Positions 1 through 63,333 are shown, counted from the whole stretch's first letter. The stretch: DNA of 63,333 bases, filler included, from Reclinomonas americana ATCC 50394 (GCA_048213135.1; 20 parts of 20 records of this genome joined end to end with filler, not necessarily neighbours in it), one strand, 5' to 3'. The notes: a model not told the origin generated them from the letters alone. Program-made: numbers and translations.

Positions 1-259
1 AGAAGAAGAAGAAGAAGAAGAACAAGAACAAGAACAAGAACAAGAACAAGAAGAAGTAGAAGAAGACGAAGAAGAAGAACAACAGCAAGAACAAGAACAA
101 GGAGAACAAGGAGAACAAGAAGAACGAGGAGAAGAAGAAAAAGGAGGAGAGGAGGGAAACACACAAGAGGACAGAGACGCACAAAGGGACAGGAAGAGAG
201 AGAGAGAGAGAGAGCAGTGAGTCTTCCATTCCTCAGGATCATGCGAAAATCTCCGCAAC

Positions 260-640
260 TGAGACCAGCAAAGTTGGCTGCGGAGACTCCACCTCCATTG
301 TCAAGCACCTCAATGCCATCCAAACCATAGTTGGTCAGCTTGATCTCTGAGAGAGAGAGAGAGAGTGAGTGTGAGAGAGTGAGAGTCAGTCAGTTCTCTC
401 TCTTTCTCTCCGCACCAACTCGTGTTGCTCCCGCATCTAATGCATTCTCCACGAGCTCCTTCACCGCAATCGGCAGTGTCACAATCACCTGAGAGAGAGA
501 GAGAGAGAGTGAGAGTGAGAAAACTCCGAGACTTTCCTCTCTCTCTTCTCTCTTTCTTTCTCAACTTGCGCGCTGCATAGTCGATGCACAGAGTCCTTGT
601 CTATAGGGCGGATGGTGGCCTCCTCGTGAGCGGAAGACAT
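260..640 (-). CDS. PMS2: MutL-family mismatch repair endonuclease PMS2/Pms1, first three exons (566-640, 416-488, 260-346); gene runs off the window start
   Basis: Spliced translation MSSAHEEATIRPIDKDSVHRLCSAQ|VIVTLPIAVKELVENALDAGATRV|EIKLTNYGLDGIEVLDNGGGVSAANFAGL has the GHKL ATPase motifs KELVENALDAGAT and DNGxG and the PMS2-type IxPIDxxSVHxICSxQV. Not in the ORF track because the exons are short. Confidence 0.92.
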
Positions 641-1139
641 GCTTCTCTGTCACAATGAAGAGGAGCAAATGTCGAAATGGCGGGAAACTGTGAAGTTCCC
701 GAGCTGTGTGAAGTTCGAGGCAGCACTCATAGAGAGGGGATTAGACAGTAAGAACAGTGATTCAAAGTGTGCAGTTGCGTTGGCCTTGATTTTTGTGGTC
801 AGAAAAGAGTCGACGTCGAAGTCGACGTTTCGAGTTGCAAAGGGTCAAAGGGCCATGTGAAACGGTCGCTGGGTGAAGTCAAGGGTCCAGAGAAGGGGCT
901 CACAAAGCCCAGAACTTCCTCTGGTCGTACGACGCCATGGAAAAGACCAAAATCCCTTGCAGCTACCCGATACAAGGGAGCACTTCAAAGATGACTGTTG
1001 GAGAGGAGATATTGCTGGTGTGCCAAGGTCATTGTCGGCAAGGGATTTGTGGACATTTGTCGCACTACTATTGCAATGTGGTGAATGGATTCCGCGTCTG
1101 CGTCTGTCTCCATATCAACAACTCCCTGTGTCGACTCAT

Positions 1140-2544
1140 TTACTTGAGATCCGTGGAGTTCTTGGCCTTGAACTTGCGATGGGAGCGCTCATGCGCCGTG
1201 TACAGCAGGTGCATGCCGTGCAGCGTGATCACGCGGTTGCCGACGGGCACCGCAAAGACGCATTCCTCTTTCGGGCACACTGCACATCGACAACAGTGAG
1301 AGCTGGATCAAGCACCACCATTCATCGTCGACCACACACACACACCCCACAGCACGTCGTCCTTGTCGATGATTTTGAAGGAGCGCTGCGTCTCCTGAAT
1401 CACAATGCCATGCACGCCCACATAACTCGGACAGCGACTCCGGGTGACTGTGTGTGGGGCGGATGAGTAGCACGCCCAAAAACCGACAACGAACGCAGAC
1501 CTCGCCCTCCCACCTGTCATCAGCGACCCATGGAAGTCGGCCTTGAGCATTCTCTGCTGCGCCGCAGCTGCCGGCCTACTCACCAACACAAATAATGGTA
1601 AGCTGCGACCTCCACCTCACGAGAGTGCCATCAAAAACAAACGCAACATGGTCACCGGCACCAGCGTGCCCACATACTGCTTCCACAGCGCATGCAGTGG
1701 CTCATACAGCGCATACTTTTGCGCCTCCTCCGGCACCTCAAACAACCGCAGCTGCTTGCGCTCCCGCGCGCTCATCAGCTTCTTGCGTCGCGCCAGCTTG
1801 GCGTGCATCGTCGGCTTCTCGCGCTTCGCCTGCCCGCAAGACATGAGCAAAAAAAAAACGCGCACACTGACTGTGCGTGTGTGTGTGTGACCTTTTGTTT
1901 CATCGCATCCTGCTCCGCCGTGCGTCCACGCAGCACCAGCAAGCGCTCTGCCAGCTTTGTGTCGACAATGGTGGTGGCGTCGGCACCGTGCACGCGACGC
2001 ACTGCGGCCTGACTGTCGACCGCCAAGTCGGCAATCAGCTCGGAGGCTTTGTGTGCGCTCACTGCGTGCACACCGCGCAATGAGTTGGTCCAGGCGGTGG
2101 CCGCTCCGTGGCGGAGAGTGTCGCGAAGGAACTGAAGGGTGAGCGAGTCGTTGCGAGAGGAGCGAGACTGTGAGGAGGGGAGAGAGTGAGTGAATGAGTG
2201 AGTGAGTGAGTGAGAGAGAGTGAGTGAGTGAGTGAGTGAGTGAGTGAGTGAGTGAGAGAGAGAGAGAGAGTGAGCGAGTGAGTGAGTGAGTGAGTGAGAG
2301 AGAGAGAGTAGAGTGAGTGAGTGAGTGAGTGAGTGAGTGAGTGAGTGAGTGAGCGAGTGAGTGAGTGAGAGAGAGAGCGAGTGAGCGAGTGCGTGAGTGA
2401 GTGAGTGAGTGAGTGAGAGGAGAAAGACACAAACCTTCAACAGTGATCCTGTTGGACCCTCAAACATCGACGCAGGCAACTTGGAGTACGTAGGGTGATC
2501 CAGTGTGTCACCTGTCGCACAATAGAGTGAGGCAAACACACACA

Positions 2545-3283: not shown

Positions 3284-5129
3284 ATGTCGAGCGTGCACGG
3301 CTCTGGCGCGGTGAGCTCCGCATCTGGCGATGGCGATCCCATGCAGGGTGACAAGGCGAGCGGAGTTACCGCTAATATCACTGTGGAGGACGACGCTGTG
3401 CAGCAGGTCAATGCATTGCCGACAGCGGAACCTCTTCTCGCGATCGACCGTGAAGGCAGACACGTCGTCCACATTGAGGTATCCTCGCCAACCCTCTCCT
3501 TCCCCACCATCTCTTTCTTGCCTCCTCTTGTATGCAGCTCTCCCTCGTTGCGCACATCCACTTTGCCGCTTACAGTACTGGTTGCCTGTTTCCGTCACAG
3601 GAATCCGCGGCCGGCGACGACCTTCCCCTCCGCACCTCCCTGCGAAGACCAACCGTATCCATCGGCAGTGCGCACTCTGCCTTTATCGCTGTGTCGTCGC
3701 TGGTGAGTGCGATCGCCCGTTGCGATCGCCTGCTTGCCGTTTCTGCAATCGTTTCCTTCCTTTCCAGTACGCAGCCGCAAGATTCTCTCTGTTCCTTCCG
3801 CTCACCCCCACCCACCTTTTTTGCACTACCATCACCGATGACCCCCATTTCTGTGCCTTTTCCCAGGCTCGTGTACACTGGAGTCCACGTCAACCCCTCT
3901 CAACGCGACAGCAGCACTCGGGCACGCGCGTCCATGTTTCGCAATCGTGCCATGCACTGCGCTGCGCGCACACACACACACACCCACTGGTTTCTCTCCT
4001 CCACAGTTGCTGGCTGCGGCAGGCGACGACGCTCCCTCTCCTGATCCGCGCCGATGCTCACCGGTGTTGGCCACCGGAAGCGTCCAGGTTCCTCTTTTCT
4101 GCTCACGGCAGCGAGTTGTCCATCTCATCACTGACTTCGACTGGCAGTCCACTCCCCCACTCAGCTCCGCCTCCAATCCACCGTCACCAGGCGCACTGGC
4201 GCACGTGCCGTTGCACATTGTGGAGTACACTGCCGACGCTGAAGCCGACATCATGGTGATTGTCGGTGATCGCGATGAGGCTCTCCGGCTCCAACAACGC
4301 CAACTGGGCGACGTCGACGCCGCGCTGGAAATGAGTGTGGTGGACCAGGAGCCGCTAACGCCATGCCAATGGTGTCGCTACTACTGGCGCAAGTGGGGAG
4401 GTCTGCACAACGTACCTGCGCAGCCGCTGCCGATTCTGTCCGAGCTGGCCATCTCCACCATTGGAATCGCCCTCTGCATGCTGGTGATTTCCATTATTTC
4501 GCATCGCGTGCTCTTGCTCCATCACGGAAACTACACGCTGCTGTTGGCGTTGCGTCCCTTTCTCCAGAGTCAGTAATCTGTGCGTGCGTAGCCTCACGAT
4601 CACTCGCCCAGCTCCTTTTGCTCCAGCATGGTCATGGTGTTGGTGGCCATGGCAGCGCCCTTCTCCCAGCCGCGCAACCTCGTCGGCGGACACTTGATTG
4701 GTGCCGTGGTGGGCCTCACGTGCCGAACCTTCTTCGATGAAGACAATCCGGACCACATGTGGCTGTCGGCCATGCTCAGCGTCACCGTCACCGCGTTTCT
4801 CATGCAGATTACATGTACGTGGCGCACCTTATAGTTGTGGCCCAACCGCTCACATGCTTCCCCCATGCAGCAACCGTGCATCCGCCAGGCTGCGGCATGG
4901 CACTCACGGGTTCCGTGGGAAGCACGTTTACGAAACTCGGCTTCCGGGCAGTGTATCTCCCGGTACTGGCCGGTGTCGGCATCATTCTGCTCTTCGCTCT
5001 CGTCTTCAACAACTTGAGCCCAAGGAGGAGGTATCCAAGTTGCGTCAACAAAAGAGGGAAAGAGAGTGTCGCCTCTGCTACGATCTGCCACTCACTGTCA
5101 ACTCGTCGAACGCAGTATACTGGTGGTGA
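3284..5129 (+). CDS. HPP-family integral membrane protein with a long N-terminal extension, multi-exon
   Basis: Spliced motifs LLLA|SFCSSMVMVLVAMAAPFSQPRNLVGGH, TVHPPGCGMAL and FNNLSPRRRYP|IYWW*, typical of HPP proteins. The exon structure of the N-terminal part is less certain. Confidence 0.88.
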
Positions 5130-5229: not shown

Positions 5230-6708
5230 TCATGTGCCGTACTTGAGCTGCGTCTCGCAAATACCCTCGACAATCTGGATGCGAACACACTTCAGTACCA
5301 TCGCTCTCACTCTCCTCCTACTCTCTGTGTGGTGGACGCAACGGTGAGATCCAGGAACTCGGCATCCAAGCATCGATCCGACGACGATCGCAGCACACGC
5401 GTAAGGAGATCGCGAATCGCGGCCGACCTGGAAACATGTCAAGCACTGCCCGCTTTGACGATCACACAACACACACACGCTCACCCATCCGGATCAATCA
5501 TCGAGCCCCACGTCAGCGACAAGTAGAAAATGTCGACCTGCATCTGCTGCAGCCCGTTGCGATCAAACGTCTGCGTGCGAACACACTCCAAGAATGACTT
5601 GGCTAGGCTCTTCAGCAGCTCGGTCATCACACTGGCGGACTCGAAGCGCGGCTGGTTGATCACAAAGGTGCGAGCCTCGGACGACAGCATGCGGTCCATG
5701 TCCATCTTCACGGCGTCCACGGCCAGGTGGCGTGGTCGGGCGGACGACGAGCCACCACTGCTCGACAAGATGCGAGCCACCGTGGCCGACGAGTTGGGGA
5801 AGAAGGCACTGACTTCGGCGCGCACGCTGTCGACCTCCTCGGCCAGCATGAGCACCACACGGCGAATGTCGCGTGGTGTGCGCATGCTGAGCCAGTTGCC
5901 AGTGTACACGGCCTTCTTGATCATGGCGGAGACGCGGCCGGAGGTGAGGCGCACGTAGTCCATCAGGTACTCCTGTGGCAAATAAGGAGAGGGAGTAAGT
6001 GAGAGGGAAAGGGAAAAAGGGGGGAAAAGAGTGGATGCGGACCGTGGCTGACTCGTCCAACGCGGCAGCAATGGTGGTGGGGCTGAAAATGCGGAACTGC
6101 GGGGGAGGGGGAGGGTGTGAGAAGTGGAGGACGAGAGATGGTAAGGTCGATGATTCATGCTCCGCCCATAGGTACCCGCCTCTCAACTCACGCATCAATT
6201 GTTGCCTTTATCGCAGGCCTATTATCATTTATTTCCCTTCCTCTTCTCTCTCTCTCACTCTCTCTCACTCTCTCTCACTCTCTCTCACTCTCTCTCACTC
6301 TCTCTCTCTCTGTATGTGTGTGTGTGTGTGTCTGTCTGTCTGTCTGCCTGTCTGTCTGTCTGTCTGTTTGTCTCTGCCTCTCCCTCTCTCGGCCTGTCTG
6401 TCTTCCATCTGTCTTTCGCTCTCTCCTCAGCTGCACCTCACTCCTCGCGGGCATTTCTGCTCTTACAGTGTAACTTCTTATTCACATACACGCTGCCATT
6501 CCCACTTCTTCTCTATTTTCTCTCTCTCTCTTGCTCGCTGTCCCCCCCTCCTCTCTCTCTCTCACGCACACACCACTCTCTCACACACTCTCTCTCCTCA
6601 CCGGAAGCACACTCCTCGCGGCCTCGCTACTCGTATCTCCTCTTACAAGCTGCGTGACTTCTCACACTGTCATGTGTCCCCTTCCTCTCTACTTCCTCTC
6701 TCTCTCTT

Positions 6709-6744: not shown

Positions 6745-8649
6745 TCGCTGTCTCCCCCTCCTCTCTCTCTCCCTGTTTCACGGCCTCGTTCACCACATTA
6801 GTCCTCTCTCACAAACTCAGTCACTTCTCATTCACAGAATAATCCTTTCAACTTATTCTTCCTCCCTCTCTCTCACTCTCTGTTTCTCTATCTCTATCTC
6901 TGTCTCCACCTCACCCCTCCTCCCAAATTACCCACGCACCTCCTCCGACACCTCCGGAATGTCCAACGTCGTCTGCAGGAAATCGACCAGCGGATTCAGT
7001 GTGTTCTCTCGCAAATCCTGCGCCAGCCGAGAAAACACAAGGAAGGTGACGGGCTCGGCGGCGTCATGCAGCGCAATCGCGTCGGCCACCGACAACTGCG
7101 ACGTTTGAAGATGGTGAGATAGGTGTGGAAAAGCGCTACCTGCGCAGCACACTTGACTCCGCAACTGGGTTGCACAGATGCGATGGTCGCATGATGGAGG
7201 CGAGGGACGAGTACACGAACGGCATGTGCCGTTGTGCGGCCTTGTTGATAAAGTGGTCGTTGGAGGAGGAGAGAAGCTGCGTAGGTGCAGGTGAGGATAA
7301 TGGTGCGCAGAGCCGAAATCTCCACAAACTCGACACACGCAACGTGGTAGCCGGTGAGGAACATTTGCACCTGCGAGGCCAGCAGCTCGGCGGCCTTGGC
7401 AATGTCGGGAATCGGGTCGACGTTCTTGCACGTCTCCACAATCCTGCGACACAAGTTAGTGCACACTCGTGTGAGATGAAGGCGGTGAGGCGACGAACGC
7501 AACTTTCTGATGCGCAAAATGTGGTCGCGCTCCAACAGCGTGAAGGTCAGCCGTGAGGCCTTTTCCACGGCCTTGCCGATAAAGCCGCTAAACTCCACCT
7601 CGAACTTGGGGGAAAGGGGAAAGGAGAATGAGAGGAGAGTCGTGATACGCGGTCGAGGAGACAGGCGAGGCAGTGGAAACCTTGGGTCGCAGTGCCGGCA
7701 GCGCGCCTTGCAGACTGCGTCGCAGTCCCGACACGCCGTGCACAAAGCGGTTGTAGTCCTCGAATTCGGGTGAGTAGAACGACGGGGTACCCTTGTCCTT
7801 GACGATGCGGCGCACGCCAACAAAGCCGAGGTTGAAGAGGTTTTCGAAAATGTGATTCGCCTCGTCTGTGAACTCGACCGCGTCGTGGTGCTCGCCACTC
7901 TGAAGAGGTGAAGGGAGGGGAAGGGGGTGGTAAGGGGAAGGGGGAGGAGGGAGGCCAAGGGAACAGAGAATGGAGATGGAAGGCAAAGGAGAGAGAAGCG
8001 GACAGCGTGCGTGCGAGCAAAGAGATGGAACAAACGAGGGGGTAGGACTGGGGAAACCGCGATAATTTAACCAACAACTCACCCTCCAGAACAGCTTGTC
8101 GCAGGTGGCGGCAATCTGCACCAGAGGTCCCAGCACATGCTGCACCAGCTCGTTGAGGTTGTCCTCGTAGGAGATGTCGTTTTTCGACTTGAATGCCTTG
8201 GCGGCCTGCGGGAATGGAGTGAGCAGAGGTGAGGGTGGATTCCTCCGCACCCACTCCCCACAAACCTGCTGCACCAGCGCCGAGCGACCGCGAATGTACG
8301 AGGCACACAGGGCGGCTGACGGCTCGCCCAATCGCAGCAGCAACTCCACGCAGTTGGAGGCCTCGGTCTCGTCGATGGTCTCCGTCAACTTGAACTGCAC
8401 CACACGCCTCGCAACGTGAGGAACGCATCACATAAAAAGAGAGAGCGGCCAAATGGTTCCGACCTTGATTTCATCGGCCAGCTCCGACACATACACCTGG
8501 CACTCTTGGTAAATGCGCGCAAACGACGCCTGGTCTCGGTGCTTCAGCAAGATGCCCTCGGCCATGGAGAAGTAGTCCACGGCCTGTCGGTACGCCTTCA
8601 GACGCAAGCAGTTCTTGAGACGGGAGGGCAGTTCGTACAGGAAACGGAT
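5230..8649 (-). CDS. VPS51: GARP/EARP subunit Vps51 (Ang2), 5'-partial, multi-exon
   Basis: IRFLYELPSRLKNCLRLKAYRQAVDYF; C-terminal KSFLECVRTQTFDRNGLQQMQVDIFYL and RCLDAEFLDLT|IVEGICE. TGA at 5230-5232. Confidence 0.9.
6240..6930. repeat. CT/CTCA/GTCT microsatellite-rich intronic region of VPS51 with small exons interspersed
   Basis: Low-complexity pyrimidine runs are visible. A short exon candidate lies at about 6602-6649 (LVRGDTSSEAARSVLP). Confidence 0.75.
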
Positions 8650-8714: not shown

Positions 8715-8814
8715 NNNNNNNNNNNNNNNNNNNNNNNNNNNNNNNNNNNNNNNNNNNNTTAATTAATTAANNNNNNNNNNNNNNNNNNNNNNNNNNNNNN
8801 NNNNNNNNNNNNNN
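8715..8814. other. Artificial contig linker N44-TTAATTAATTAA-N44, first of 19 (others start at about 13301, 15389, 17030, 19833, 21760, 24733, 27210, 30067, 34234, 39228, 41180, 44634, 48367, 52571, 55006, 56819, 58277, 60426)
   Basis: Identical spacer with stops in all six frames, embedded in N runs. Confidence 0.99.
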
Positions 8815-10027: not shown

Positions 10028-10239
10028 GGTGTTTGCGTGTGCGAAGAGATGAGAAGTGGGTTTCGTGGCACAAAATTTCATCTTCTCCGCCTCGAGCTCG
10101 TCGTGCCACCCACCAACAAAGACTGCTGCAGGAATGTTTACTGCTTATATCTAACAACTGACCTCACGGGGCTATCTTGAACAATGAGAATGCAGAGAAA
10201 GGAAGAGAAAACAAGCCCTCAACAAAGCCTTCAATTTTT

Positions 10240-13300: not shown

Positions 13301-13400
13301 NNNNNNNNNNNNNNNNNNNNNNNNNNNNNNNNNNNNNNNNNNNNTTAATTAATTAANNNNNNNNNNNNNNNNNNNNNNNNNNNNNNNNNNNNNNNNNNNN

Positions 13401-15159: not shown

Positions 15160-15388
<229 letters not shown>

Positions 15389-16951: not shown

Positions 16952-17014
<63 letters not shown>

Positions 17015-44733: not shown

Positions 44734-46795
44734 GGGCACGAATCTCGGGCTTGAGTCGAGCCCACACCACCATGTACTGGGCCTGCTGCGCCTGCTTGAA
44801 CCTGCATGGTATCAGCGATGAGTGCACGTCTCTCACACAAGTTTCAGCGGTCGCGCGCACCACTGGGCAATAGGAGTCTGTTCGCACAAGCACAGACAAA
44901 CAGCGCATGAGGGACATGAGATACGGTGCATGAAACAGATCAACGACGAACCCGGATGACACCACTGCAAGCACGCATAAAGAAAAAGCACAAAACAAGT
45001 CAATCTACAGCGACAAGCACGATACACAGCGGCAGACTGGCACGAACTCTGCAACACAATAAGTTAGCACATGCACAGAGACACAAACAACGGTTTCATC
45101 ACGAGACGCAACATGGCGGTGGCCAGTATGCCTGTTGCATCTCACACAATCAGTACGCTGAGCAACAAAAGTGGGTGCGGCGAAGAAACGCACCTTGCCA
45201 AAGGGATCCAAGTCGGTGCTCTGCACAGACACAACTCGCGGAGTTGGACGCTGACGAATCTCGTCGACACCCTAAATTCACTCACCTCGCACACGTACTT
45301 GACGCCGTCAATCACCAGCACCATGGCAGTGTGTCCTGCAACGAAGCGTGAGAACCAGATCGACAACATCGACAATAGGTAGTCGAAGCTGTCTCACCAA
45401 ACACGCCGCCTGTAACGTATGCATGTGAGATATTCAAGCGACAGTGACGACATATGTGCACACACACACGCACCAGCGTTCCACATGATCACGGGGTCGA
45501 GACCGTCCAGGCGAGTGATGCCGAGGTAGTCGCCAGACTGCGTCGCGCAGAACAGACGCACAAAGGTGAGCGACAGAGCGAGGTCTTCACTTATACTGCC
45601 TGCCTGCACATGAAACCGAAACTTGGAACTGGTCGAAAGGAATGTTGAGCATGCCCTGGCTGCGTGGGTTGAACACCAGGCCGGCCTTCTCGCGCAGGAA
45701 AGCAATGTTGTCCTTGGGCATATTGCGGCCGGTGAACAGGCGGAAGGTATCCTATTCAGGCGTGCATGAGAGAGAGGAAGGTGATACACAGACGGCGAAT
45801 GACGCACCCAAGCGTCGACCACGGTGCCGAGAATGCCGTCGGGGAAATTGAAGATTTGCAGACCACTCTGCGCACACGGGTGCACAAACGTAAGCGCAGG
45901 GAGGGCAGAGGAGCTCGCACACCACCACGACACCACAAACCTGCAGCACCCAAGCCTTCTCGCCGTCCTTCCAGCTGCCGCCAGTCACTGCGACAAGAAC
46001 AAATGAGCTTGTCCAACAAATGATGCAGAGAATGCACTCGCTCCCAGTACCGTGCTTCTCGCCGTGCGTGAACACATTGTGCACGTGCGCGTGCTCCGGA
46101 GTCGCCAGGAGGTACAGCTGAGAGAGGCGTCAAACACACACGCGCGATACACTCCGGGAAAACCACAGGAGACACACGCAACATCGTCGCAAGTAAGAGT
46201 GCGCGGATGTGCGGCGACATGCGTGAGCTTCCATCCATCGTCCGTCACCGTCAGCGTCGCGTTGTTCTGCGCAAAGCACGGCGCACTCCACGACACAGTG
46301 GCGCTCTAATGCAAGGGAAAAAAGAAAAGCAAGTCAACAAATCGATACACACACAATCACAATCACACACGCACGCAACGACAACAGCCGCGGCCTTGAA
46401 CTGCGGCACCCACGACCAGTACGGCGACGGATCCTTGCCCAGCGTGTCGCTCTCCGAGGCCACAGAGGCGCGTTCCCACAGCGGCACTCGCTCCGAGTCA
46501 TCAATCTACGAGACACTGTGCATGAGCGGCATTGGAAAGCCGACCTGAATGCTGACTGCACACTCACCGGAGTAATGCGCACAGTGCCATCATCCATCAC
46601 CTCCGTGCGCTGAAACTCAGCAAGCACCGCCTCTCGACGACGACGCACAAGCACACTCATATCCTCCTCCGCCTCCGCCTCCATGCCGACATTCACTCGC
46701 AGCGACGACGATGCATCTGCATGCTGCGTGCAGGCGACCAAAACCACAGCAAACAGCACCACAAACAGCAGCAAAAGCCCGCCTGCGCGCTGCAT
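44734..46795 (-). CDS. Secreted uncharacterised protein of a plant/ciliate/amoebal family with a permuted NlpC/P60-like GD...H...E pattern; microexon-rich; 3'-partial
   Basis: Spliced: signal peptide; SWSAPCFAQN; CDD|LYLLATP; NIAFLREKAG; Q|SGDYLGITRLDGLDPVIMWNA|GGVF|GHTAMVLVIDGVKYVCE|STDLDPFGK|AYWPPP|Y|GVIR|TPIAQW|FKQAQQAQYMVVWARLKPEIRA. Confidence 0.75.
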
Positions 46796-46908: not shown

Positions 46909-48357
46909 ATGGATCCGCGGGCTTCGCCACTGTCGCCGGCGCAAGTGTTTGGTGGTGGCGTGGACACAGGCTCCTGGGCTGATGAGAGTTTCGCGCGTGC
47001 CTGCCTTCTCACTCTCTTCTTTTTCTGTCTTGCACGCACGTGTGTGTGCGCGTCTCTGCTGGTCAAGCGTGCTGCATCGTCGCCTTCTGTGTTCTCTGTC
47101 TCGCTGTGTCGCCAAAAGTGGGTGTGTGACATTGTGTGATGGCGCGCGCGCGCAGGTTTCGACACATGGTCGGGCGATGGGCACAGTTGCGTCTGTTGCC
47201 TCTCTGTCAACAAGTGCGCTTGAAGCCAGCGCATTTGGCCATTGACTTGCATGTGTGTGTGTGTGTGTGCAAAAAAGGTATCGAGGATCACCCGTATGCT
47301 CGACCGCGCAAGACGCGATACTCGGGAAGCTGGGCCGATGAAGTCGAAGCCGACATTGGTCCGTGAGAGAGTGCGGGGGAGAGCGATGCATGGGATACTC
47401 TCCTTTTGTGCTCATCTGTGTGCCAGGCAATCTCGAGGACTTGTCTTCGCCGGGGCAGGATGATGAGATGCCGCTGCAGCATGTGTGGACGCTGTGGTTT
47501 GATCAGCAGCAGCATCGTGGCATGTCACAGCAGGAGTACGCGCAGGAGCTGGAGAGGTTTCTGTCGGCGCTCTCTTGTTCGCCAGCTCCACGGTGACATC
47601 GCCTCATATCGCCCCGTTCTCTGGCAGAATTGGATCGTTTTCCACCATCTCCGAATTCTGGCGCTACTGGAGTCAGCTGGATGTGGCCGAGCTGCCGTAC
47701 CTGTCCAACTTTCGTGTGTTCAAGTCCGACATTCATCCCTCGTGGGAGGACCCGCAGAACGCCAACGGAGGCCGATGGGTCTGCGTGTGTTTCCGACCGA
47801 TCTCTCATCTCGCAAATAAGAGAGTTGACCCTGTTCCCGCAATGCTGGGCAGATCCTGAAACTTCCGCGTCACCTGCGCGGCGTCGTATGGGAGAAGGCC
47901 ATTATGGGCATGGTGGCGGAGGGATTCCAGAGCGTGCAGGACTTGGTGAGGGGAGCAAGACCACTTCCAACTTGGTCGCATGGGACTTATTGTGTTCTTC
48001 CCTCGTTAGTGTGGTGTGGTGTTCTCTTGCCGTGCACACTTGGACTTTGTGGCGTTCTGGAGCGCCTCGGTGGCCGCGCCGGATGTTGCGCATGCATTTG
48101 CGCGTGAGATTATTACGTATCTCGGTCTCGACTCGCTGCAGTACCAGATTGAGTACCAGACGCACGCAGTTGCGTCGTGCAATTCTATCACTCGTTTTAA
48201 AAGCACACAAACTGAGTTGGCTGACGTCGTTTTCTGTCACAGGATGCCAAGGCCAACGTGGGAACCACCAACCCCCCGGCCACGAAGAAGGCCCTGGAGG
48301 TGGCCCCGATTGCGGAACCGGGCTGGGAAGTGCAGCGTCCACGTCACCAGGAAAAGG
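46909..48357 (+). CDS. eIF4E-family cap-binding protein with N- and C-terminal extensions
   Basis: MPLQHVWTLWFD, IGSFSTISEFWRYW, FKSDIHPSWEDPQNANGGRW, CGVVFSCR and YQTHA|D. The frame is still open at the gap. Confidence 0.92.
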
Positions 48358-48466: not shown

Positions 48467-51067
48467 GAGGGCGCCGTTGAGAAGAAGAAGCCGGCGTGGA
48501 GCACGCCGCCGCTCATTGAGCCAGCGACGACAAGCACTGCTGTGACGGCACCGCCACCACACCTGACTGCGCCGGCGCCGCCCGCACAGCTACCACAGAC
48601 GCAACCGCAACCTCCTGCTGTAGTCATGAATGTGCCGGTTCCACCGACTGCATCGGATGCGCAGCGTCCACCACAGCCTCCTCGCCGTGCTCCTGATGAA
48701 CGCACTCAGAATCCGTCATCCGCCAAGGACGCTGGAGGCAGTGGCGAAAAGAGGCCACCGTCCACTCGTCGACGACACGAAGGAGGTGAGGGAAATGCGC
48801 CGGCGGGAGGAGGCGAAGGCCGCAGCCGAGCTGGCAGTGGCAGTGGCAGTGGCGGTGGTGGCGGCACGGCACAGCCAGCGAACGATAATGCACGTAAGAA
48901 GCAGTCTGGCCGAGGCCCGAATAGGAGCCGCGGCAACAGCATTGAGAAGCGCGCTGCGTCACCGGAGAGCCACTCGTCGGAGGCCAGTCGCGCCTCCACT
49001 CACTCGGGTTCGGCCAGCACCGCGAACAGTGCTTCGACAGGCACGTCGGCGTCTGCACCCGCGCCGACAAAGAGGTTTGTTTGCATCGCATTCCTGCTTG
49101 TTGGTCTTTCGCTGCTCGGTATCTCACTATCGCTTGGCAGTGGCAGCTCCAAGTGCGTATTGACAATGCGAGAGAGTGCGACCGCGTGTAACTAACTCAC
49201 CGATGTTTGTTTCGGCAGATCCCTCAATGCACCTACACCGACCGCATCAGATCGCAAGCCGTCGCCTTCTCGCCCCGCAGGAGCGCCGGGGGCTGCGGCT
49301 GCGGAATCTGGGGGCCACGGCAGTGCGTGATTGCTTGCACCATCGCTTTTCATCCTGCTTCATGGCCTGACTGTGTCCATTTCGCTAGGTGGTGGACGGA
49401 AACGCAGCAATAGTCGCCGGAAAGACAACACGACATCGACCGACCCGTCACCGCGCAGTTGCGAAGCAGACATAGACGCAAGGAGGTAGACATGGCGATC
49501 TGAGTTCGTATCTTTTCGTGGGTCTACCCTGCAGCGTCGACGTCTCCAATGCGGTCGTCGGCCCCGGGAAGACGGCGGTCGAACAGTGGCAAGAAGAAGA
49601 CCACCGAAACAGTCGTTACCACCACGCTCGTGACCACTGACAAGCAGGTGTCGGCCGATGGTGTCGTCACGGAGGTGCACCACCATCATCACCATCACCA
49701 CCACCATCACCACCACGTGGTTGTGAGCCCAGGCACGTCACCGTCGCTTGATGCACATTCGGCCTCGAGTGCCGAGCATGTACCGGCATTGACTGCCGAG
49801 CAAATCGGCGGATTGGAGGATCTCATTAGTGGTGCGTCACCGCGCGCCATCGCTCCCCTTCTTGTCATGTTATTTCACCCTGTTCTTCTTCCTCTTCTTC
49901 TTCTTCTTCTTCTCGTCGTGCAGGTGCCACAGACGACAAGAAACAGAAACCGAGGTCGCGCCGGCAGAGTGGTGGGGAGCGCAAGTTGCCAAAGCCGGAG
50001 GGCTTGAGCATTCCTGTGCCAGCAACCAATGCGTCTTCCGTGGCTCCGGCAGGCGGCAATGCGCCTGTGGGTGCCACGGAGACGACACAGAAGAATCGCT
50101 CACGACGCAACAGCAGCAAGAAGGGTGGGGCGGACGCGGCCGCCGATTCCACGGCAGTGACAGCCACAGCGCCGCAGTCAGCGCCCTCGTCTGCACCTCC
50201 CACTGGCGCCAGTGCTGCGGCGGAGGATGCCGAAGCAGCGGCAGCTAGTCGACGCAAGCGAAGTGCCAAGCCCAGCGACAAAGTGTTGCGTTGATTCACA
50301 CTTTTTCAGTGGCATGTGAGGTGTGACGGACTGACCGATCACGCAGTTCGGAGTGGACAAGTACGGGCGACGAATCGCACGCCGTTCCATTCACTGTCGA
50401 CGCCACATCGCTGAGCAGTTGCGTGTGTTTTGTGTGTGTGTGTGCGCGTGCGCGTGTATTTGGATGGCTATTGACTGAGTTGCGCACAGAGCTTCCGCCT
50501 TCTACGGCTGCTGTGTTGGCGTTGCGCGCTGGCATACAAGGTTCCGGTGCCGCGGCTCCACAGCCGATGTCCGCCTCTCAGTCCTCGGCAGCTCCGCCTC
50601 CACAGCCTTCTTCTGCAGCACCACCGGCAACAGCTTCTCGTGGGCCATCGTCTGACGCCACCGAGTCGCAAGTTATGAAGCGAAAAGTCAGCAGCAAGCC
50701 GAAGGTGCGTCGTGTGTGCTGTGGCGTGACACGAAGCATTGTTGCATCTGCTGACCTGTTGGCGGAGCAGGCACCAAAGGCCGCAGGCGCCAGTGGCTCC
50801 TCGTCGGGCTCCACCAACGGCACAGAACAACACGGTCACGACTCGGACTCGGATGTGGAGGTTGTCGAGAGCGTGGTGGACGAGCTCAACATGGGCGAGA
50901 AGGTGATCTCTGACCGACAGTGTTGTTGTGTGTGCACGGGTCCACCTGACACCGCGCCATTGCAGGTGTCACTGAATATCCTCAAGGCATCGATTGTGTT
51001 GCTGATCGTCGGTCTACTGTACCTGCTGCTCACTAGCGGACAGTCGCGGTCACGACTGCGCTCTTGA
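48467..51067 (+). CDS. Long S/A/P/R-rich low-complexity region with poly-His and a C-terminal transmembrane helix; probably the continuation of the eIF4E-family gene
   Basis: Exon chain is open from the segment start to ILKASIVLLIVGLLYLLLTSGQSRSRLRS*. AATAAA at 51111-51116. Confidence 0.7.
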
Positions 51068-53671: not shown

Positions 53672-54909
53672 CTACGAGTAGAAGTTGTTGCGGTTGGAGC
53701 TGCCGATCCGACGCGACAACTCGTTACTGAAGTGCCAGTTGCCGAGCAGATCCTCCAGTCGAATGTGCATGCGATACTTCCAGTAGTGGTACCGATTCGC
53801 TGGGTTGTTGATCTGCTCGCTCTGTGGCGATGGGTGGCGCAGACGTTCGTCACACGCCAGCAGGTCTTGCAGCGGGAAAATGGCCCACATGGACGGCGAC
53901 TGCAAGTGCTGCATGAGAACTCGCTCGGCGACCCACGTCTCGCAGAAGAAGGGCGCGTCGCCGGGGAAACCGAGAATCGAGTTGAAGTAGCGCTGTGACC
54001 GCGCACGATCCTCCTCCCACCACGCTCGCAGTGGCGACGTGTCGTGACTGGAGGTGGTGGCCACTGTGCGGTACGGGTACGTCCACGGCTCGTCGAACTC
54101 CTTCTTGGCGTCGGCCGGCATGCGTTGCACACGCAGACCGAGAATGCCCAAGTCGCTCAGTACCGGAGCGACGCACTTGGGTACCAAGCCGAGATCTTCG
54201 GCGCACACCAGCATCTCTGCAATGAAACAATAAAACAGTGAGCAACAATCACACGCACCACCAAGCTGCTGCAACAAACAACAAAAAAAAACGCAACTGG
54301 AGGCGCGGCGCATCATTGACGTGCGCTCGAATCCCACCTGACCCCACAGATCCTCTTGTCGCTCGAAAAAGTACGAGATACACAGACGGTACAACTCGCG
54401 CTTCCAGTCGGCCGACAGCTCTCCGTACTTGGCGGTCTTCCACAGGGCAAAGCGCGGGTAGAATGCATCGCGGTTTTCGCGATCCTTGTACAGGCACACG
54501 TTGTTGAACACGTTGACGTAGATGCAGCGGCAGGTCTCCGGTGAGAGGCCACTCTTCTCCACAGCACGCTCCGTGCTGAACTCGGGCTTCAGGAATAGCA
54601 CTGTGGCATCGTGCTCCACAAACAGTGGTGGCGCGGCGCCGGCAGACGAAGACGAAGAGGACGATGAAGCCGAACCATCGGCACTGCCAGCTGCGGCTGC
54701 GGCGGCGTCGGAAGCAGACGAGCCACCGGCAGCTGACGACGATGAGGAAGAGGTGGTCGAGGCCGGCGGTGCCACAAACAAGAGATCCCGCACCACAGCG
54801 GCCTCCGTGTCGCCCAACAGGTGTCGCAAGAGGCCAAGTCGAATCGAGGGCACTGCACGCACAAAACATGAGAGAATGCACCGTGAGTTATCGGGCCAGG
54901 ACCAAGAGC

Positions 54910-55004
<95 letters not shown>

Positions 55005-56324
55005 CNNNNNNNNNNNNNNNNNNNNNNNNNNNNNNNNNNNNNNNNNNNNTTAATTAATTAANNNNNNNNNNNNNNNNNNNNNNNNNNNNNNNNNNNNNNN
55101 NNNNNAATGGCGGAGCCGGCGCCGCGGAACGTCAGCGCGCCGAGGTTGTTGGGGAAGCGGAAAGGCGTGGTCTGCATGGCGATCTTGCGGCACGGCGCGC
55201 CGCCACCGGGAGCCGCCAAGTCCGCGTCCAGCACGCGATCCTCGCCGGCCTCCCACATGCGCTCACGACCCTCGTTATCGATCAGCACAAACTTGTATCG
55301 CACCGGCAGCTCATCGCGCGCCACCTGGAAGCGCGTGGTCCACTGGAACACCGCCGCGGCGTCCGCCTGCTGCTCACACACCATCGGTACTGCACGAGCG
55401 AGATCCCACTCGCCGAGTGCCCGCGACGAGCCGATCAGCACCACCGAATCGGTGGGTGCCACGCGCCACGCCTCCACGCGCACCTCGACCTCGGTGACAC
55501 TCGGATCCCAGTCGGCCGACGGCACATCGGCCAGCGACGGTCTCAGCGGCACCGCGTCGGCCTCGCGTCGGAAGAGCACTCCTCGGAAGGCCGCACTCGA
55601 CACAATGCCCTGATCGACACTTGCCGCCGCTCGCCACAGATCCACGCTGCCCAAATGAAGCAACCGATCGTGCTCTGCGCTGTGCAGCAGCGGAAGCACA
55701 AGTTCTCTGCGCAGACACGACGACGACATCAGTGCGACATGTCGCTCACAAAACGAACTTGCACTTCAACGTTGCGGGTAGTGCGATGCGTGAGGAGACC
55801 AGAGAATGCGTGTGTGTCGCGCGGGAAAGAAGGGGATGGGAAGAGAGAGCGAGTGGAAGATTGCATGAGCGGCTCTCTGCATCACAAAAGTGCGAGAGGC
55901 GCACACAAAGGCAAACAGAGCAGTCTGTGTGCGTGTGTCTGTGTGTGTACACAAGAGCAAAGACAAGTCACTCACCGCACACCGGTCTCGGCCTTGATCG
56001 AGTTGGAGATGTGTGGGTTGTACACAACGTATTTGAAGCGCAACAGTGCCGACGAGTGGCGATGCTTGTCGTCGGCGATCGAAGTCAGTCGCGCTGTGCC
56101 CTCCCAGCACCCGTCGCGGTATCGCAGTTGGAAGCCGTTGGTGTGCTCCCAAGAGCCAAGCGACTCCTGCGTGTGTGTGCGAGAAGGAGAGAGAGAGAGA
56201 GTGAGTGCATGATTGACTAATGCGGTGGTGGTGTGGAGCGGCACGCAACATCACTGCCGACGACAAAGCACAGCTCGCCAAAGGCCGCTGGCACCTCGCT
56301 CACACGAAAGCTGACGCGAACCAT
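53672..56324 (-). CDS. DPE2: 4-alpha-glucanotransferase DPE2 (two CBM20 + GH77), middle missing in the gap
   Basis: CBM20 motifs VVGSD|ESLGSW...FKYVV and LIGSSRALGEWD...RYKFV...WEAGEDR; FRGAGSAI; MLVCAEDLGLVP, GLRVQRMP, SSHDTSPLRAWWEED and INNPANRYHYWKYRMH. Confidence 0.95.
54913..55003. repeat. (CA)n microsatellite in a DPE2 intron
   Basis: Directly visible. Confidence 0.95.
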
Positions 56325-58376: not shown

Positions 58377-60330
58377 GGAATGCTTCGTTGCGGGCCATCC
58401 GGCAGCGCGCCGGTAGCGTGCAATGCCCTGTGGAGGCATGCACGGAGCTGGTCCCTCCCAAGACACTCAAGGTTTGTCTGTGTGCGTGTTCGAGCACGGC
58501 TATGCGGCGTTGCCTCATTGTTGCCTTCGTGTCGCAGGAGGAGGTGCTGAGCGAGGCCGAGTACACGGACTTGGTGGACGGCCCGATCCAGGCCAAGTTG
58601 GAGGAGGGTGGCGAGTTGGTGAGCTGCCCACGATGCCGTGCGCCATTTGAACGAGTGGCCGCGTCTGGTGCAGCTGCTGGAGGCGCCCCGCAGGTGTGTC
58701 ACTTTCGGTGCTTGCGGCGCTGTGCAGTCGTATATTCACGTGGCTCTCCATGCAGGCCGGTGGACCGAAAATGTCGGCCGAGGCGCAAGAACATCAGGCC
58801 AATTACCGCTTCCGCTGCCGCAAGTGCGCCTCTGTGTTTTGCGCCAGCTGCAAGGAGATTCCGTACCACGTTGGCTACACCTGCAGTGGAGTTTCGTTTT
58901 TTTTTGTCACGTGCCCCTGGTGCGCACACGTTGTGGAATGTTGACGAATGATTCTGATGGTGCAGTGGGTGGAGTACAAGAACTCGCGCGCATGCCGCTT
59001 CTGCGAGACCCAGCTGAACGAGCGCAACACGTGCGTGGATCCAGTGGAGGACTGTTGCGTGTCTGACTGTGTGCATATACGTATATTTGTTATGTGTGCT
59101 CGTCTCATATACTGTTGTTGCATTGCAGATGCCGACATTCCGCCGGGACTGCTCGATGTGTGCACCGATCCTGGCTGTGTCGAAAAGCGCGCGCGGAGCT
59201 GCGAAAAGCTGCTGGACTGCGGTCACCCGTGCTGTGGAATTCGGGGCGAGGAGGAGTGTTTGGGATGTTTGCGTTGCGAGGCACCGGATGGTAGCTGCGT
59301 CGGCGACGAGTACTGTGTGATTTGTGGGTACGAGCCGCTAAAGGTTGGTCTACATTTTTTTCGCTAGTGCCTTCTCAAGACAGCGCATGGGGTGACTCAC
59401 TGTTCGCGTATCGTGTGATCTTTCTTGCAGCTGGCGCCGTGCATAAGACTGAGCTGCAATCACGTGCTGCACTACCACTGTGTGCTCGAGCAGCTGCAGC
59501 GGAGTTACCCTGGTCCTTCGATTACGTTCGGATACATGCTGTGCCCGCACTGCAAGCGGATGTTCAACCACCCGGCACTGGCGGAGGCCATGCGCGATCC
59601 GCTCCTTCTGTACCGAGTGCGTTTTTGTGGCTTGCTGTTGTTTTCTCCCCTCGCGGTGTCGCCATCTTGCCTCCTCACCGTGGTGGTGTGGCGCAGACGG
59701 TGGAGGCTCGCGTGTTGGATCGACTGGAGCGTGAGGGTGAATCGAATCACTTTCACATTGTGGATCCGTCGGGCAAGTTCCACAACGATCCACTCGGCTT
59801 TGCTTTGCATCGCTACGCCTACTATCGGTGCTCCAAGTGCAAGGTGAGGAACGTAGCAGCTGCTGTGCTCCGTCTCCATTCGTGCGCTCACTCCCAGCAC
59901 CTGCAGGACCCATACTTTGGCGGTCGGCGTGAATGCGAGCAAGTGGCCGATCAGCGGCCCGTCAATCCCGACGACTTGGTGTGCCCGACGTGCTCGAGTG
60001 TCGGGCTGGAGACGTGCGCGCGCCACGGCAAGGACTACTTGCAGCACAAGTGCAAGTTCTGCTGCAACGTGGCCAGCTTCTTCTGCTGGGGCACGACGCA
60101 CTTTTGCGAAAAGTGCCACAAGCGACAAGAGGATGGCGACTATCTCACACGCTACAAGGTGAGCACCGCAGCAGCGGCTTGTGTGGTTCTGCATCCTCAC
60201 TTCTTCTTTGTTCACGTTGCAGCGCGAAGACCTGCCACGCTGTCCGGGACCTGGGCACTGCAAGTTTGCGCCGCACCCACCAAGTGGCGAGGAATTCGCA
60301 GTCGGCTGCGCATTGTGTATCGATCGCTGA
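58377..60330 (+). CDS. MYCBP2/PHR-type RING-Cys-relay (RCR) E3 ligase module preceded by IBR-like and B-box-like zinc fingers; 5'-partial
   Basis: RING CVICGYEPLK|LAPCIRLSCNHVLHYHC...ITFGYMLCPHCK; YAYYRCSKCK|DPYFGGRREC; KCKFCCNVASFFCWGTTHFCEKCH; HPPSGEEFAVGCALC. TGA at 60328-60330. Confidence 0.9.
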
Positions 60331-60611: not shown

Positions 60612-61644
60612 GTTTTTCGGCCGGAGCCACATGTATGGCGGCCCCACGTGCGGTGTGTTACCCGTATGTCTCGTTGCCGAAGAGTAAGAACCACTCATCG
60701 TGTGCTTGTTGCAGGCAAGGACTGCGACTACAATTTTGATCCCGAGGGAGTTGCGTGCGGTTGACGTGCCGAATCATGTCGTGGTGTGCGTGTGTCTGAC
60801 ATGTGTGCACAGCTGATGGGCGATTTTACTGCGCTGTTGTCCCTCTTCCTGGGCCTCCATGTGGGCCGTGTGTGCCGCGAGTGCACCACCATCAAGGAGC
60901 GCATCTTGCAGTGGGTGCCCTTCGGTGTCTTTTGGGTGACCCTCGGTACGTGCACCTCGCACGAGTATCGTGTGACTCAGACGATCTCACCCACCCACCC
61001 ACCGCCGCTCGCTCGCCGCACACAGGCATTGTTTTGCACGTGACGGGCGCGATCCCATGGAACAAGAAGTTACGCTCACTGACGCCTCTGCTGCCTTCCT
61101 GCGTGTTCTCACTCTTTTCGTGGTGCATCAGTCTGTGGTCCTTCTCGTACACGGTATTCATGGGCGGCGCCGATACGCTGTTCGTCACACTCGTCTACGT
61201 CCTTGTCGACGTGCTCAAGTGGAGCTGGCTCATCAAGCCGTGGATCATGATGGTAAGCAAGCATCGTGTGGTGTGGTGAGGGGAGGAGGAGGAGGAGAAG
61301 CGTACCCACGTAGAACTCGCTTTTTTGTGGTGTGTGCCACGACCATGCAGGGCATGAATGCCATCATTCTGTTGCGTGCAGTCGCGTACTGAGTGTGCAT
61401 GCCTATGTTTCTGACAACTCTCCCCGCGCACAGCTACATCGGCTCCGAGGTTGTTCCCAATCTGCTGTCGATGGTCTACTACGGCGATCCATGCAACCCG
61501 TTCTACGTCTGGTTCGGCACCAACGCCTTCAACAATCCCATGGGCCGCGACTGGGGCGGCGCCATGTTCGGCCTCTTTAATGCGCTCGTGTGGGTCTCTG
61601 TCGGCGCCATTCTCTACTGGAGAAAGATCTTTATTAAGTTGTAA
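60612..61644 (+). CDS. HGSNAT: Heparan-alpha-glucosaminide N-acetyltransferase-like membrane protein, 5'-partial
   Basis: FDPEG|LMGDFTALLSLFLGLHVGR, IPWNKKL, M|GMNAIIL|YIGSE and LYWRKIFIKL*. Confidence 0.88.
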
Positions 61645-61744
61645 GCGTGCACACACAAAAAGCGACGACGGGCATGCGCAGTGAACGTCGTTGTCGTCAC
61701 AAAGTCCCGTTGTGTGTGCGCAACAAAACAGACCACTCCACGCA

Positions 61745-63333
61745 ATGTGGATTCTCGCGTGGTTCAGTCAGTTCTGGGTGCTATGCATCAAGCACTTTTG
61801 CGTGTGGGTGGGTTCCTTGTGCTGCTGATGCACACGCACTCTTTCTCTCTCACAATGTCTGACTTATTCTTTCTGCGGGGTCGGAGTAGACACGCAGCCT
61901 GAAAGTGACACTGGCGCACCTCATAGCCCCCGTCTTCATCATCTTCCTCATCTTCCTGATGCAAAAGGTGCGTGTGTGTGTGTGTGTGTTGACACAAAAG
62001 ATCAATGATGAGAATGCCAACACACACTGCTATTGCAAGATCAATCCCACGCGCGGTGCACAAGTCGACTCGGTGACTCCGGCCGACATTGGCACTCTGC
62101 AACAGTGCAAAGTTGCGTTGTCTCTCGCCGCCTGCTGACTTGGCGGGTGACACAGCAAGTAAAGTAAGTACCACGTGCAGGAGGCCAACTGCGTGACAGT
62201 GGCCTATGCGCCCGACGGCGACGCAAGAGTGACAGACACGATGCACTGGCTGCAGCAGGTCACTGGACTGACCGTGGCGGAGCGCAGACGCAGTCAGGCG
62301 CTCGATGGTGCGTGGTTTTTGTGTGTTGTATCAGTGTGTGTGTGCTTGTCGCGGAGCCCCGACGAATGAGTGTTGCAGATCCGACTCCGCGAGGCCTCGT
62401 CGGCTTCTCCAGTGAGACCGAGTTGAAAGACTTTATGAAGTTGTGTATGTGTGTGTGTGTGTGTGGAAGTGCTCCGGCGTGTACTCACCGTGGTCGACTA
62501 CATGCACAGAAAGAACCAGGGGCCGACCTATGTTGGTGAGTGCATGTGTGAATCGTCTCTGTCATTATGTGGCAGTTTAACATCTTTCTTGTCTCCGTGT
62601 ACGTGTGTGGTGCAGGCCTGCTGTTCTCGTGGGTCATGGAGTTGCCGGTGGTCACCTCCGTCTTCAATGTCACGAACGACCGCACGCCACAGGCATTTGT
62701 GTCGCTTGCCGAGGCGCACATTCTCAAGTACAGCCAAAACAACGTGTGCAACGCCGGTGCGTCGCCTGCTTTCAATCTTCATCTGTGCTACCGCTCATTG
62801 TGCTGGCTGTGACAGCTCCTGGCAACTGCCGCATATCGCTGCACGTGGAGGGCTTCCCGGAGATTGACGCGAGACCTATTGATCGCGATAGTTGCGCTGC
62901 GCACGCCCCTCATCGCTCGTGGCTCTTTTTCCGTGACTTACTGTTCGTATGTGTGTGTGCAGTTGTTGCAAAGGGTGGCGCGGGTTGGTTCATCACCGCG
63001 CCCATGTTCAGTCTGGTGCTGATTCTTCACATGGTTCGTTACCGTTTACCGCACGCTGCTTCCCACTCTGCCTCCTCACCCACTCACACTTGCGCGTGAG
63101 ACAGGTGGTTGCCGAGAAGCAAAGCGGGCTGCGACAGGGGTTGGCCATGATGGGACTTTTGGTGTGTATTTGGGTGAAGCCCTATCTTATTGTTGTCATT
63201 TGTTCTCACGTCACGTGCCCTGCTCTCGGCGACACAATTCAGGATGGCCCCATGTGGTCCACGTGGTTGTTGTTTGGCTCCTTTATCGGAGTCCTCGGTC
63301 AGTTTTTCTCACAATCACGTGTGTGTGTGTTTG
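61745..63333 (+). CDS. ABC transporter subfamily A, N-terminal part
   Basis: QFWVLCIKHFCVW|TRSLKVTLAHLIAPVFIIFL; CVTVAYAP; VVAEKQSGLRQGLAMMGLL|DGPMWSTW (ABCA ExExxLRxxMxxMGL motif). Confidence 0.88.

Follow-up and report, generated by a model that had tools for sequence, protein, structure and literature searches.

The stretch of DNA analyzed here (the window) comprises 63,333 nucleotides (nt) of intron-rich eukaryotic sequence, about 55% G+C, from Reclinomonas americana ATCC 50394 (GCA_048213135.1). It carries neurofibromin-like, eIF4E-like, ribosomal protein P1, HPP-family and DPE2-like 4-alpha-glucanotransferase genes, among others, and this report concerns the 5' splice sites (donors) of their predicted introns. 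An earlier note on the same DNA had described an abundant class of donors that begin GTTGCGT, GTTGAGT, GTTGTGT or GTTTCGT, with the conserved GT at +6/+7. Our analysis indicates that a GTTGCG(T) donor class is real and beyond chance, but that it is narrower than first claimed: it consists of one sequence, GTTGCG(T>N), in about 25-33 introns of the window.

Gene models

Gene structures were predicted with a small Viterbi finder that uses codon log-odds, phase tracking, an acceptor matrix and a length prior. In the equal-prior parse, the same fixed score was given to GTNNGT donors (class A, the ordinary donors) and GTTNNGT donors (class B), and all other GT donors (class C) were penalized. The class-level statistics below were taken from the 120 introns of this parse that were short (<=130 nt), namely 68 of class A, 24 of class B and 28 of class C. 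When genes were predicted from codon usage and any GT could be a donor, the result was too noisy for fixing junctions. Few exons could be named by Pfam, for which 369 single open frames and 46 exon pieces were scanned.

Frequency of the GTTGCG(T) donor

The heptamer GTTGCGT occurs 37 times in the window (23 on the + strand and 14 on the - strand), compared with 15.2 expected under an order-1 and 14.6 under an order-3 Markov model. It is 2-4 times commoner than its single-base neighbors (e.g., GTTGCGA 13, GTTGCGC 20, GTTGCGG 15, GTCGCGT 17, GTGGCGT 21 and GTTGCCT 9), and the wider pattern GTTNNGT occurs 116 times on both strands. On the other hand, the three further variants that had been placed in the class are not enriched: GTTGAGT was seen 3 times vs 8.5-12 expected, GTTGTGT 19 times vs 17-31, and GTTTCGT 9 times vs 6-8. 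Of the 24 short class-B introns, 20 begin with GTTGCGT and 1, 1 and 2 with these three variants, respectively.

Even when any GT could serve as the donor, GTTGCGT was already the top donor heptamer (5 of 110), and the predicted excess of G at +6 and T at +7 among GTT donors was present (6 of 26, compared with 116 of all 1463 GTT sites; p=0.016). An unsupervised first-order donor model produced 184 introns, in which GTTGCGT (15) ranked second to a GT-repeat heptamer (16). The equal-prior parse produced 141 introns (A 83, B 25, C 33), and a looser setting 180 (A 112, B 31, C 37). As for the fate of the 37 GTTGCGT copies in the equal-prior parse, 21 were used as donors, 8 lay unused in the sense orientation within genes, 1 was antisense and 7 were outside the models. 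Unused copies at 45112 (-), 1647 (-) and 5039 (+) were intron-like on inspection. Furthermore, a parse that allowed GTTGCG[ACG] on the same terms gained 8 donors from 48 sites, compared with 12 from 430 single-substitution controls. The total then rose to 33 of 147 introns, with the core GTTGCG in 28 of the 33. A site at 39182 (+) has a donor-like start and is interrupted by a contig join.

The class thus accounts for 18% (25/141) or, with GTTGCG[ACG], 22% (33/147) of the predicted introns, shares that are rough because they come from our own imperfect models of a single window. Within the window, the description of a major intron class holds. The manual tally of 35-40 introns in the earlier note was somewhat high even against the looser setting (31/180). 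Of the 18 donor coordinates given there, 14 were used as donors in the parse and the remainder were not; 5039 (+) and 45112 (-) look like introns, yet the model did not choose them. The donor proposed at 39019 (+) reads GTTGCGA, and the one at 565 (-) reads GTTGAGA, has no GT at +6/+7 and falls outside the GTTGCG class. This last site is the start of a 76-nt, CT-rich, intron-like stretch with a CAG end (490-565, -).

Position of the cut

Where does the intron begin? The four lines of evidence on the cut site use no donor sequence beyond GT. In the frame-offset test, the best upstream coding frame was compared with the independently best acceptor and downstream frame, and the linking donor position was taken modulo 3, class 0 being a cut before the G of GTT. 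From 40 GTTG[CA]GT sites, 2 in simple repeats were skipped and 16 were not evaluable; the other 22 were distributed 17/2/3 over classes 0/1/2 (p=3e-5). The controls were flat at about one third per class (GCNNGT 90/104/101, TGNNGT 90/99/111), and the peak moved as expected after a one-base shift of the anchor. Consequently, for most sites the cut can lie neither after the G nor at the GT further downstream. An ordinary GTNNGT in frame and within 15 nt was present in only one of the 24 class introns.

Two junctions, 54297 (-) in the GH77/DPE2 gene and 57942 (+) in the ribosomal protein P1 gene, are residue-exact as judged by alignment to homologues. At 54297, removal of 54217-54297 gives a gapless match across the junction to a hidden Markov model (HMM) built from 45 full-length homologues, and the split codon yields the consensus lysine. 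The HMM score is 391.6 bits for the spliced product, 385.7 bits with GTT kept, which also leaves an in-frame stop, and 370.1 bits for the unspliced reading. Among 968 relatives of the GH77 exon, the best are 63-64% identical to it, and the dictyostelid ones, nearest among those with a name, about 60%. In the P1 gene, residues 4-24 of the upstream exon align with residues 4-24 of 2lbf_A (a weak match, E 0.93) and residues 2-39 of the downstream exon with residues 26-63, so that the exons abut at 24|25 with no residue missing or extra. The junction at 56249 (-), in the CBM20 part of the DPE2-like gene, scored 16.5 bits when spliced vs 11.8 bits with GTT kept. These results show that the cut falls directly before GT, as the earlier note had placed it, and that, relative to the preferred donor G|GTGCG(T), the TGCG(T) core lies one base deeper in the intron.

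Features of the class

The T at +3 is specific. Among sites with GT at +6/+7 considered for short introns under the equal prior, 23 of the 116 with T at +3 were used, and the corresponding figures for the other bases were 9 of 289 (G), 5 of 137 (C) and 2 of 40 (A); when GT was placed at +7/+8 as a control, 20 of 706 sites were used. This is not, therefore, a general class of "GT plus one base". T at +7 is preferred but not required. Positions +4 to +6 read GCG in 20 of the 24 class donors, which makes the class nearly monomorphic. The 68 ordinary donors are diverse (GTGTGT 17, GTGCGT 15, GTGAGT 9, GTTTGT 6, GTTCGT 5, GTATGT 5), and GTGCGA and GTGCGC are also among the ordinary donor forms of this DNA.

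The class introns have a median length of 70 nt vs 71 nt for the ordinary ones. All 24 end in CAG (their GT start is given by construction), and a CTNAY motif lies within 45 nt of the 3' end in 20 of the 24. Class and ordinary donors also share genes; the neurofibromin-like gene, for instance, has 6 and 14 of them, respectively. By their ends, frame restoration, branch-like motif and length, the members of the GTTGCG class are predicted to be otherwise ordinary, short GT-AG introns of the U2 type.

Two other identities for the class were considered and rejected. An introner-like mobile family was dismissed as the intron bodies share no similarity: an all-against-all blastn comparison of the 120 short-intron interiors found only 2 pairs, both low-complexity matches of 16-18 nt. 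U12-type introns have the donor motif RTATCCTY, to which the class donor GTTGCG is unrelated. They resemble the present class in being a second, sharply defined donor class beside ordinary introns in the same genes, but the GTTGCG introns are like the ordinary ones in length, CAG acceptor and branch-like motif. A single donor at 3479 (+), GTATCCTC, resembles the U12-type donor, and no convincing U12 branch motif was seen downstream of it.

The exon side of the donor

Ordinary donors have G at position -1 in 36 of 68 cases and the weak, class-C donors in 19 of 28, whereas the GTTGCG class has it in only one of 24 (Fisher p=1.7e-5). The assertion that the exon almost never ends in G is thereby borne out, 23572 (-) being the one exception among the 24. 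The other class introns have A (10), T (8) or C (5) at this position. The share of A (10/24) exceeds the 18.6% found in exons (p=0.0075), and before all 37 GTTGCGT sites there are 14 A and 3 G. Other GTTG occurrences in predicted exons are preceded by G in 45 of 203 cases (p=0.019), which argues that the depletion of G at -1 is not general to GGTTG. The 8 GTTGCG[ACG] donors likewise lack G at -1.

The three last exon bases of the class were also scored under the profile of the ordinary donors. The log-likelihood of positions -3 to -1 was -113.6 when the profile was aligned, -99.7 when it was slid by one base and -103.5 under the exon background, so that sliding the profile improves on the aligned fit by 13.9 log units. 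The robust exon-side signal, however, is the lost preference for G at -1, and a slide of the whole consensus rests on weak positions. The proposal that the entire MAG|GTRRGT consensus had moved by one base was overstated in this respect: the loss of the -1 G stands, but neither class has a strong signal at -2 or -3.

A separate observation concerns the class-C donors, such as GTGCGA, GTGCGC and GTGAGG, which have no T at +6. Their high proportion of G at -1 (the 19 of 28 given above) suggests that, in Reclinomonas americana, exon-side pairing compensates for weak intron-side pairing.

Recognition by U1: a proposed shifted register and its rivals

How could such a donor be recognized? The reading that we prefer, and to which we give an even chance of being right, is that short GT-AG introns genuinely and often use GTTGCG(T) as a 5' splice site, at which pairing with the U1 small nuclear RNA (snRNA) is shifted by one base. 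U1 would pair with the GTTGCG sites one base out of register, such that G+1 of the intron would occupy the slot of the exonic G-1 and U+3 the slot of U+2. U+2 itself would be a mismatch, and GCG(U) would pair as in ordinary donors. The cut itself would be left to the later steps (U6, U5 and Prp8), for which just one GU is available, a base upstream of where U1 pairing would set the junction. Since one pair would be lost, the remaining core would have to be the best possible, which would result in a class of nearly a single sequence; and since G+1 would fill the exonic -1 slot, no G would be needed at -1. The shift would also explain why A is enriched at -1, why T is required at +3 and why the core of the class is the same as that of the ordinary donors, GTGCG. 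A further-reaching and more tentative version, which we consider possible though somewhat improbable, is that U1 recognition is routinely separated from cut-site choice at about one fifth of the introns; the near-invariance of GUUGCG would then predict a lineage-specific change, either G/C in place of the two U1 pseudouridines, with which GCG would pair perfectly, or a second U1 dedicated to the class.

Several observations weigh against the shifted register. With the canonical U1 5' end, taken as printed in the accessible text of PMC4856993, the mean duplex energies of the class were -0.10 kcal/mol in the shifted, +0.65 in the bulged and +0.79 in the canonical register, compared with -4.83 kcal/mol for the ordinary donors. 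The shifted register was nonetheless the best of the three in 14 of 24 cases, with that mean of only -0.10 kcal/mol, and the U1 sequence used may not be the organism's own. Values of about 0 kcal/mol in every register mean that standard U1 pairing alone does not explain the class. The strong preference for C rather than A at +5 misfits a simple shift on the standard U1, and the class is far more uniform than slid ordinary donors would be (GCG in 20/24 vs GTGCGT in 15/68; p=1.7e-7). On the exon side, the slid profile is only 3.8 log units above the exon background, and G at -1 (1/24) is rarer than the slid model predicts, as position -2 of the ordinary donors is G in 20 of 68. In the frame-offset test, 5 of the 22 evaluable GTTG[CA]GT sites fell in other offset classes. 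Finally, the introns are predicted ones, based on our own gene models and two homology checks in one 63-kb window. The pairing values and the preference at +5 suggest that the organism's U1 differs at two central positions, that there is a second U1, or that a later factor reads GCG. A scan of the window with Rfam at gathering thresholds gave 0 matches, no snRNA gene among them.

Direct pairing with GUUGCG(U), with no register shift, might instead be achieved by a second U1 variant dedicated to the class or by a U1 5' end specific to the lineage; an additional base opposite U+3, or G/C in place of the two pseudouridines, would be examples. This would agree with the near-invariance of the donor (20/24 GTTGCGT, and the core GTTGCG in 28/33), with the near-zero pairing of the canonical U1 end, and with the choice of C at +5 where A pairs better with the standard U1 (GTTGAGT, 3 vs 8.5-12 expected). 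Such an RNA could also have an exon-side preference of its own, which would fit A over G at -1. Nevertheless, the two donor types stand side by side, as in the neurofibromin-like gene, and the class core is the ordinary GTGCG plus one T, which the shift explains without a new RNA; we regard a dedicated U1 as unlikely, although it is the strongest of the rivals. Slightly less probable still is a U1 in its normal register with one U at +2/+3 bulged out. Formally, GU-U-GCGU is the ordinary GUGCGU with an extra U, and this register is known in humans, where the accessible text of PMC4856993 gives 68 sites predicted and 54 kept, of 201,541. However, with a bulge position -1 would still face U1 and the preference for G should persist, which it does not. 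The aligned exon profile, which a bulge would retain, is the worse one by the margin given above, the bulged register is the best in only 2 of 24 cases with the canonical U1 end, and the extra base need not be specific, yet T is the sole base at +3 with usage above that of the control.

Could the class be an artefact, with the true junctions at nearby conventional GT donors, with introns that start at GC and keep GTT as valine, or with some other motif at work? Retention of GTT is frame-neutral and creates a stop in only 1 of 24 cases, an ordinary GTNNGT follows several of the sites at a distance of 5 nt and in a different frame, and our gene models are imperfect (one training run reached 363 introns and was discarded). 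On the other hand, the P1 exons abut with nothing extra, keeping GTT leaves a stop and a lower score in GH77 and costs score in CBM20, and just five of the 22 evaluable sites lie in offset classes 1 and 2. In-frame ordinary donors are nearly absent from the neighborhood, and the unrelated intron bodies argue against a repeat family. We therefore consider an artefact very improbable. As to the choice between shifted and bulged pairing, which had been left open, the loss of G at -1, the slid profile and the restriction to T at +3 favor the shift and disfavor the bulge; the shifted register is accordingly the best available reading, and it is on indirect evidence that it is favored over the bulge.

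Relation to known systems

To our knowledge, non-canonical U1 registers are known only as rare human exceptions, proven site by site with suppressor U1s. According to the accessible text of PMC4856993, validated noncanonical registers make up 1.5% of 201,541 human donors; those with a bulge at +2/+3 number 54-68 sites (Roca et al. 2012, as summarized there), and those with a shifted register are a handful (Roca and Krainer 2009, cited and re-tested in Tan et al. 2016, PMC4856993). The part of a paper on tunicates available to us (PMC13326754) names the shifted register merely as a possibility.

As they are described in the text available, the human shifted-register sites are cut at a GU that precedes by one base the junction which the best U1 pairing would imply, with the +1 G in the exonic -1 slot and the cut set by later steps rather than by U1, and in these respects they resemble what is proposed here. 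They differ in number, a handful compared with 18-22% of the predicted introns in the window. They differ also in that the present class is essentially one sequence, GTTGCG(T), and that its predicted pairing with the standard U1 5' end is negligible. The human bulge +2/+3 sites, so far as that text describes them, share with the class the form GU-U-core, an ordinary donor with an extra U; the preference for G at -1 expected of them is absent here (1/24). A full-text search of the open literature, which was not exhaustive, found no report of an abundant GTTGCG/GUUGCG donor class. The GTTGCG class is probably a variant of a known rare mechanism and as yet undescribed.

If a single shifted donor serves a large share of a genome's introns, thousands of them could serve as natural tests of how the cut is fixed once U1 has left, of the amount of U1 pairing required and of whether the 5' ends of snRNAs co-evolve with donor classes. 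The class may thus be a natural system for studying cut-site choice. In addition, gene finders trained on GTNNGT-type donors will mis-call the junctions of the class, as our own models did when they read through or misplaced several of them.

Intron list and neighboring features

The members of the class are listed in Table 1. "Both parses" refers to the weight array model (WAM) parse and the equal-prior parse. The T statistic is a motif-blind flank statistic of low power, which placed 9 of the 37 GTTGCGT sites above the 95th percentile of the null. It missed the verified donor at 54297, which was filtered as a T-run, and 60750 failed, the upstream exon being apparently about 12 codons long in the model.

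Table 1. Predicted introns and intron-like stretches with GTTGCG(T) or related donors in the window.
Position	Strand	Donor	Length (nt)	Phase	Context	Basis
1576..1647	-	GTTGCGT	72		Hand-built; TAG end; RNase P/MRP p29 gene	Donor phase 2 joins frame with Pfam p29 positions 12-47; not model-chosen
3719..3774	+	GTTGCGA	56			GTTGCG[ACG] parse
4549..4626	+	GTTGCGT	78	2	HPP-family gene	WAM and equal-prior parses; downstream exon starts at Pfam TM_HPP position 45; frame hand-checked
5275..5342	-	GTTGCGT	68	0		Both parses; offset class 0
7096..7165	-	GTTGCGG	70			GTTGCG[ACG] parse
7277..7343	-	GTTGCGT	67	0		Equal-prior parse; T statistic 17.9, above null 95th percentile
7444..7503	-	GTTGCGT	60	2		Equal-prior parse; T statistic 28.4 (highest); offset class 0
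20929..21002	-	GTTTCGT	74		Rare variant, model only	Equal-prior parse only
22016..22082	-	GTTGCGA	67			GTTGCG[ACG] parse
23503..23572	-	GTTGCGT	70		Sole class case with G at -1	Equal-prior parse; offset class 0
34576..34638	+	GTTGCGT	63	0	Neurofibromin-like gene	Both parses; flanking weak PDB neurofibromin match
35322..35389	+	GTTGAGT	68		Only GAG variant used	Both parses; offset class 0
35766..35979	+	GTTGCGT	214 (modelled)		Doubtful	Equal-prior parse; offset class 1; 35893 donor replaces it when GTTGCG[ACG] allowed
35893..35979	+	GTTGCGC	87			GTTGCG[ACG] parse
36749..36822	+	GTTGCGT	74	1	Uncertain	Equal-prior parse; offset class 2
37556..37643	+	GTTGCGT	88	1		Both parses; T statistic 27.6; GTTTGT 5 nt downstream is an out-of-frame alternative
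38165..38248	+	GTTGCGC	84			GTTGCG[ACG] parse
39019..39091	+	GTTGCGA	73	1	Hand-built	Removal joins upstream frame to open frame leading to 39182 donor; not model-chosen
40291..40364	+	GTTGCGT	74	0		Equal-prior parse; offset class 0
42076..42143	+	GTTGCGC	68			GTTGCG[ACG] parse
42263..42332	+	GTTGCGT	70	1		Both parses; offset class 0
45049..45112	-	GTTGCGT	64		Intron-like; CTAAC branch-like motif; CAG end	Acceptor score 7.8; not model-chosen; short flanking open frames
46118..46182	-	GTTGCGT	65	0		Both parses; offset class 0
48169..48242	+	GTTGCGT	74	0	End of eIF4E-like domain	Both parses; T statistic 26.4; upstream exons match Pfam IF4E
50285..50346	+	GTTGCGT	62	2		Both parses; offset class 0
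50521..50618	+	GTTGCGC	98			GTTGCG[ACG] parse
54217..54297	-	GTTGCGT	81	1	GH77 (DPE2-like) gene	Homology-exact (HMM)
56167..56249	-	GTTGCGT	83	0	CBM20 part of DPE2-like gene	Both parses; HMM score
57942..58071	+	GTTGCGT	130	0	Ribosomal protein P1 gene	Homology-exact vs 2lbf_A
58891..58965	+	GTTTCGT	75		Rare variant	Both parses
59054..59128	+	GTTGCGT	75	1	Cysteine-rich E3-like gene	Both parses; T statistic 18.4; offset class 0
60750..60812	+	GTTGCGT	63	0	Membrane-protein gene	Both parses
61371..61433	+	GTTGCGT	63	2	Same membrane-protein gene as 60750 (+)	Both parses; T statistic 17.0; offset class 0
62112..62180	+	GTTGCGT	69	0		Equal-prior parse; offset class 0
62440..62509	+	GTTGTGT	70 (modelled)		Doubtful	Equal-prior parse only; GT-rich stretch, in-frame ordinary donors 9 and 15 nt away
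62891..62962	+	GTTGCGC	72			GTTGCG[ACG] parse

The PDB match to neurofibromin around 34576 (+) (E 0.14) is consistent with removal of the intron but too weak and gapped for a residue-exact junction. A protein word search with a 447-residue neurofibromin-like open frame found nothing, the frame being probably outside the length range. The HGSNAT label given to the membrane-protein gene of 60750 (+) and 61371 (+) was not confirmed, as its exons had no Pfam or PDB match, and an 83-residue exon of it, compared with representative proteins, matched only one unrelated repetitive protein. A PDB sequence search with the last exon of the eIF4E-like domain gave nothing. The cysteine-rich gene at 58502-60160 (+) has RING-like spacing and a weak match to Pfam zf-RING_2; its open frame had no PDB sequence match, and the gene is reminiscent of relay-type E3 ligases.

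The window contains 19 filler blocks (e.g., 8715-8814, 39228-39327 and 55006-55105), in each of which a 12-base spacer is flanked by 44 N on either side. Ten of the spacer bases were seen and read TTAATTAATT; the pattern, if continued, would give stops in all frames. For this reason, we read the blocks as joins between contigs and the window as a chain of about 20 contigs of 1.4-4.5 kb, with genes cut at the joins. In the DPE2-like 4-alpha-glucanotransferase gene (53675-56324, -), the regions matched by the family HMM are limited to 95-254 and 624-913, and nothing in the gene corresponds to positions 255-623 of the model, which make up the first half of GH77. Since a contig join (55006-55105) lies where the match breaks off, sequence is probably missing here and the gene itself is unlikely to be truncated.

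Long (GAGT)n, (GT)n/(CA)n and (GA)n microsatellites occur at 2160-2420, at 2530-2610 and elsewhere, and they inflate the raw counts of GTGAGT and GTGTGT and give rise to false donor candidates. Finally, a tandem array of at least 6 closely related WD40-repeat open frames of 339-529 codons lies at 8945-19225 (-). Each of these frames matches many beta-propeller families, and their fusion into two giant genes by the models is surely wrong.

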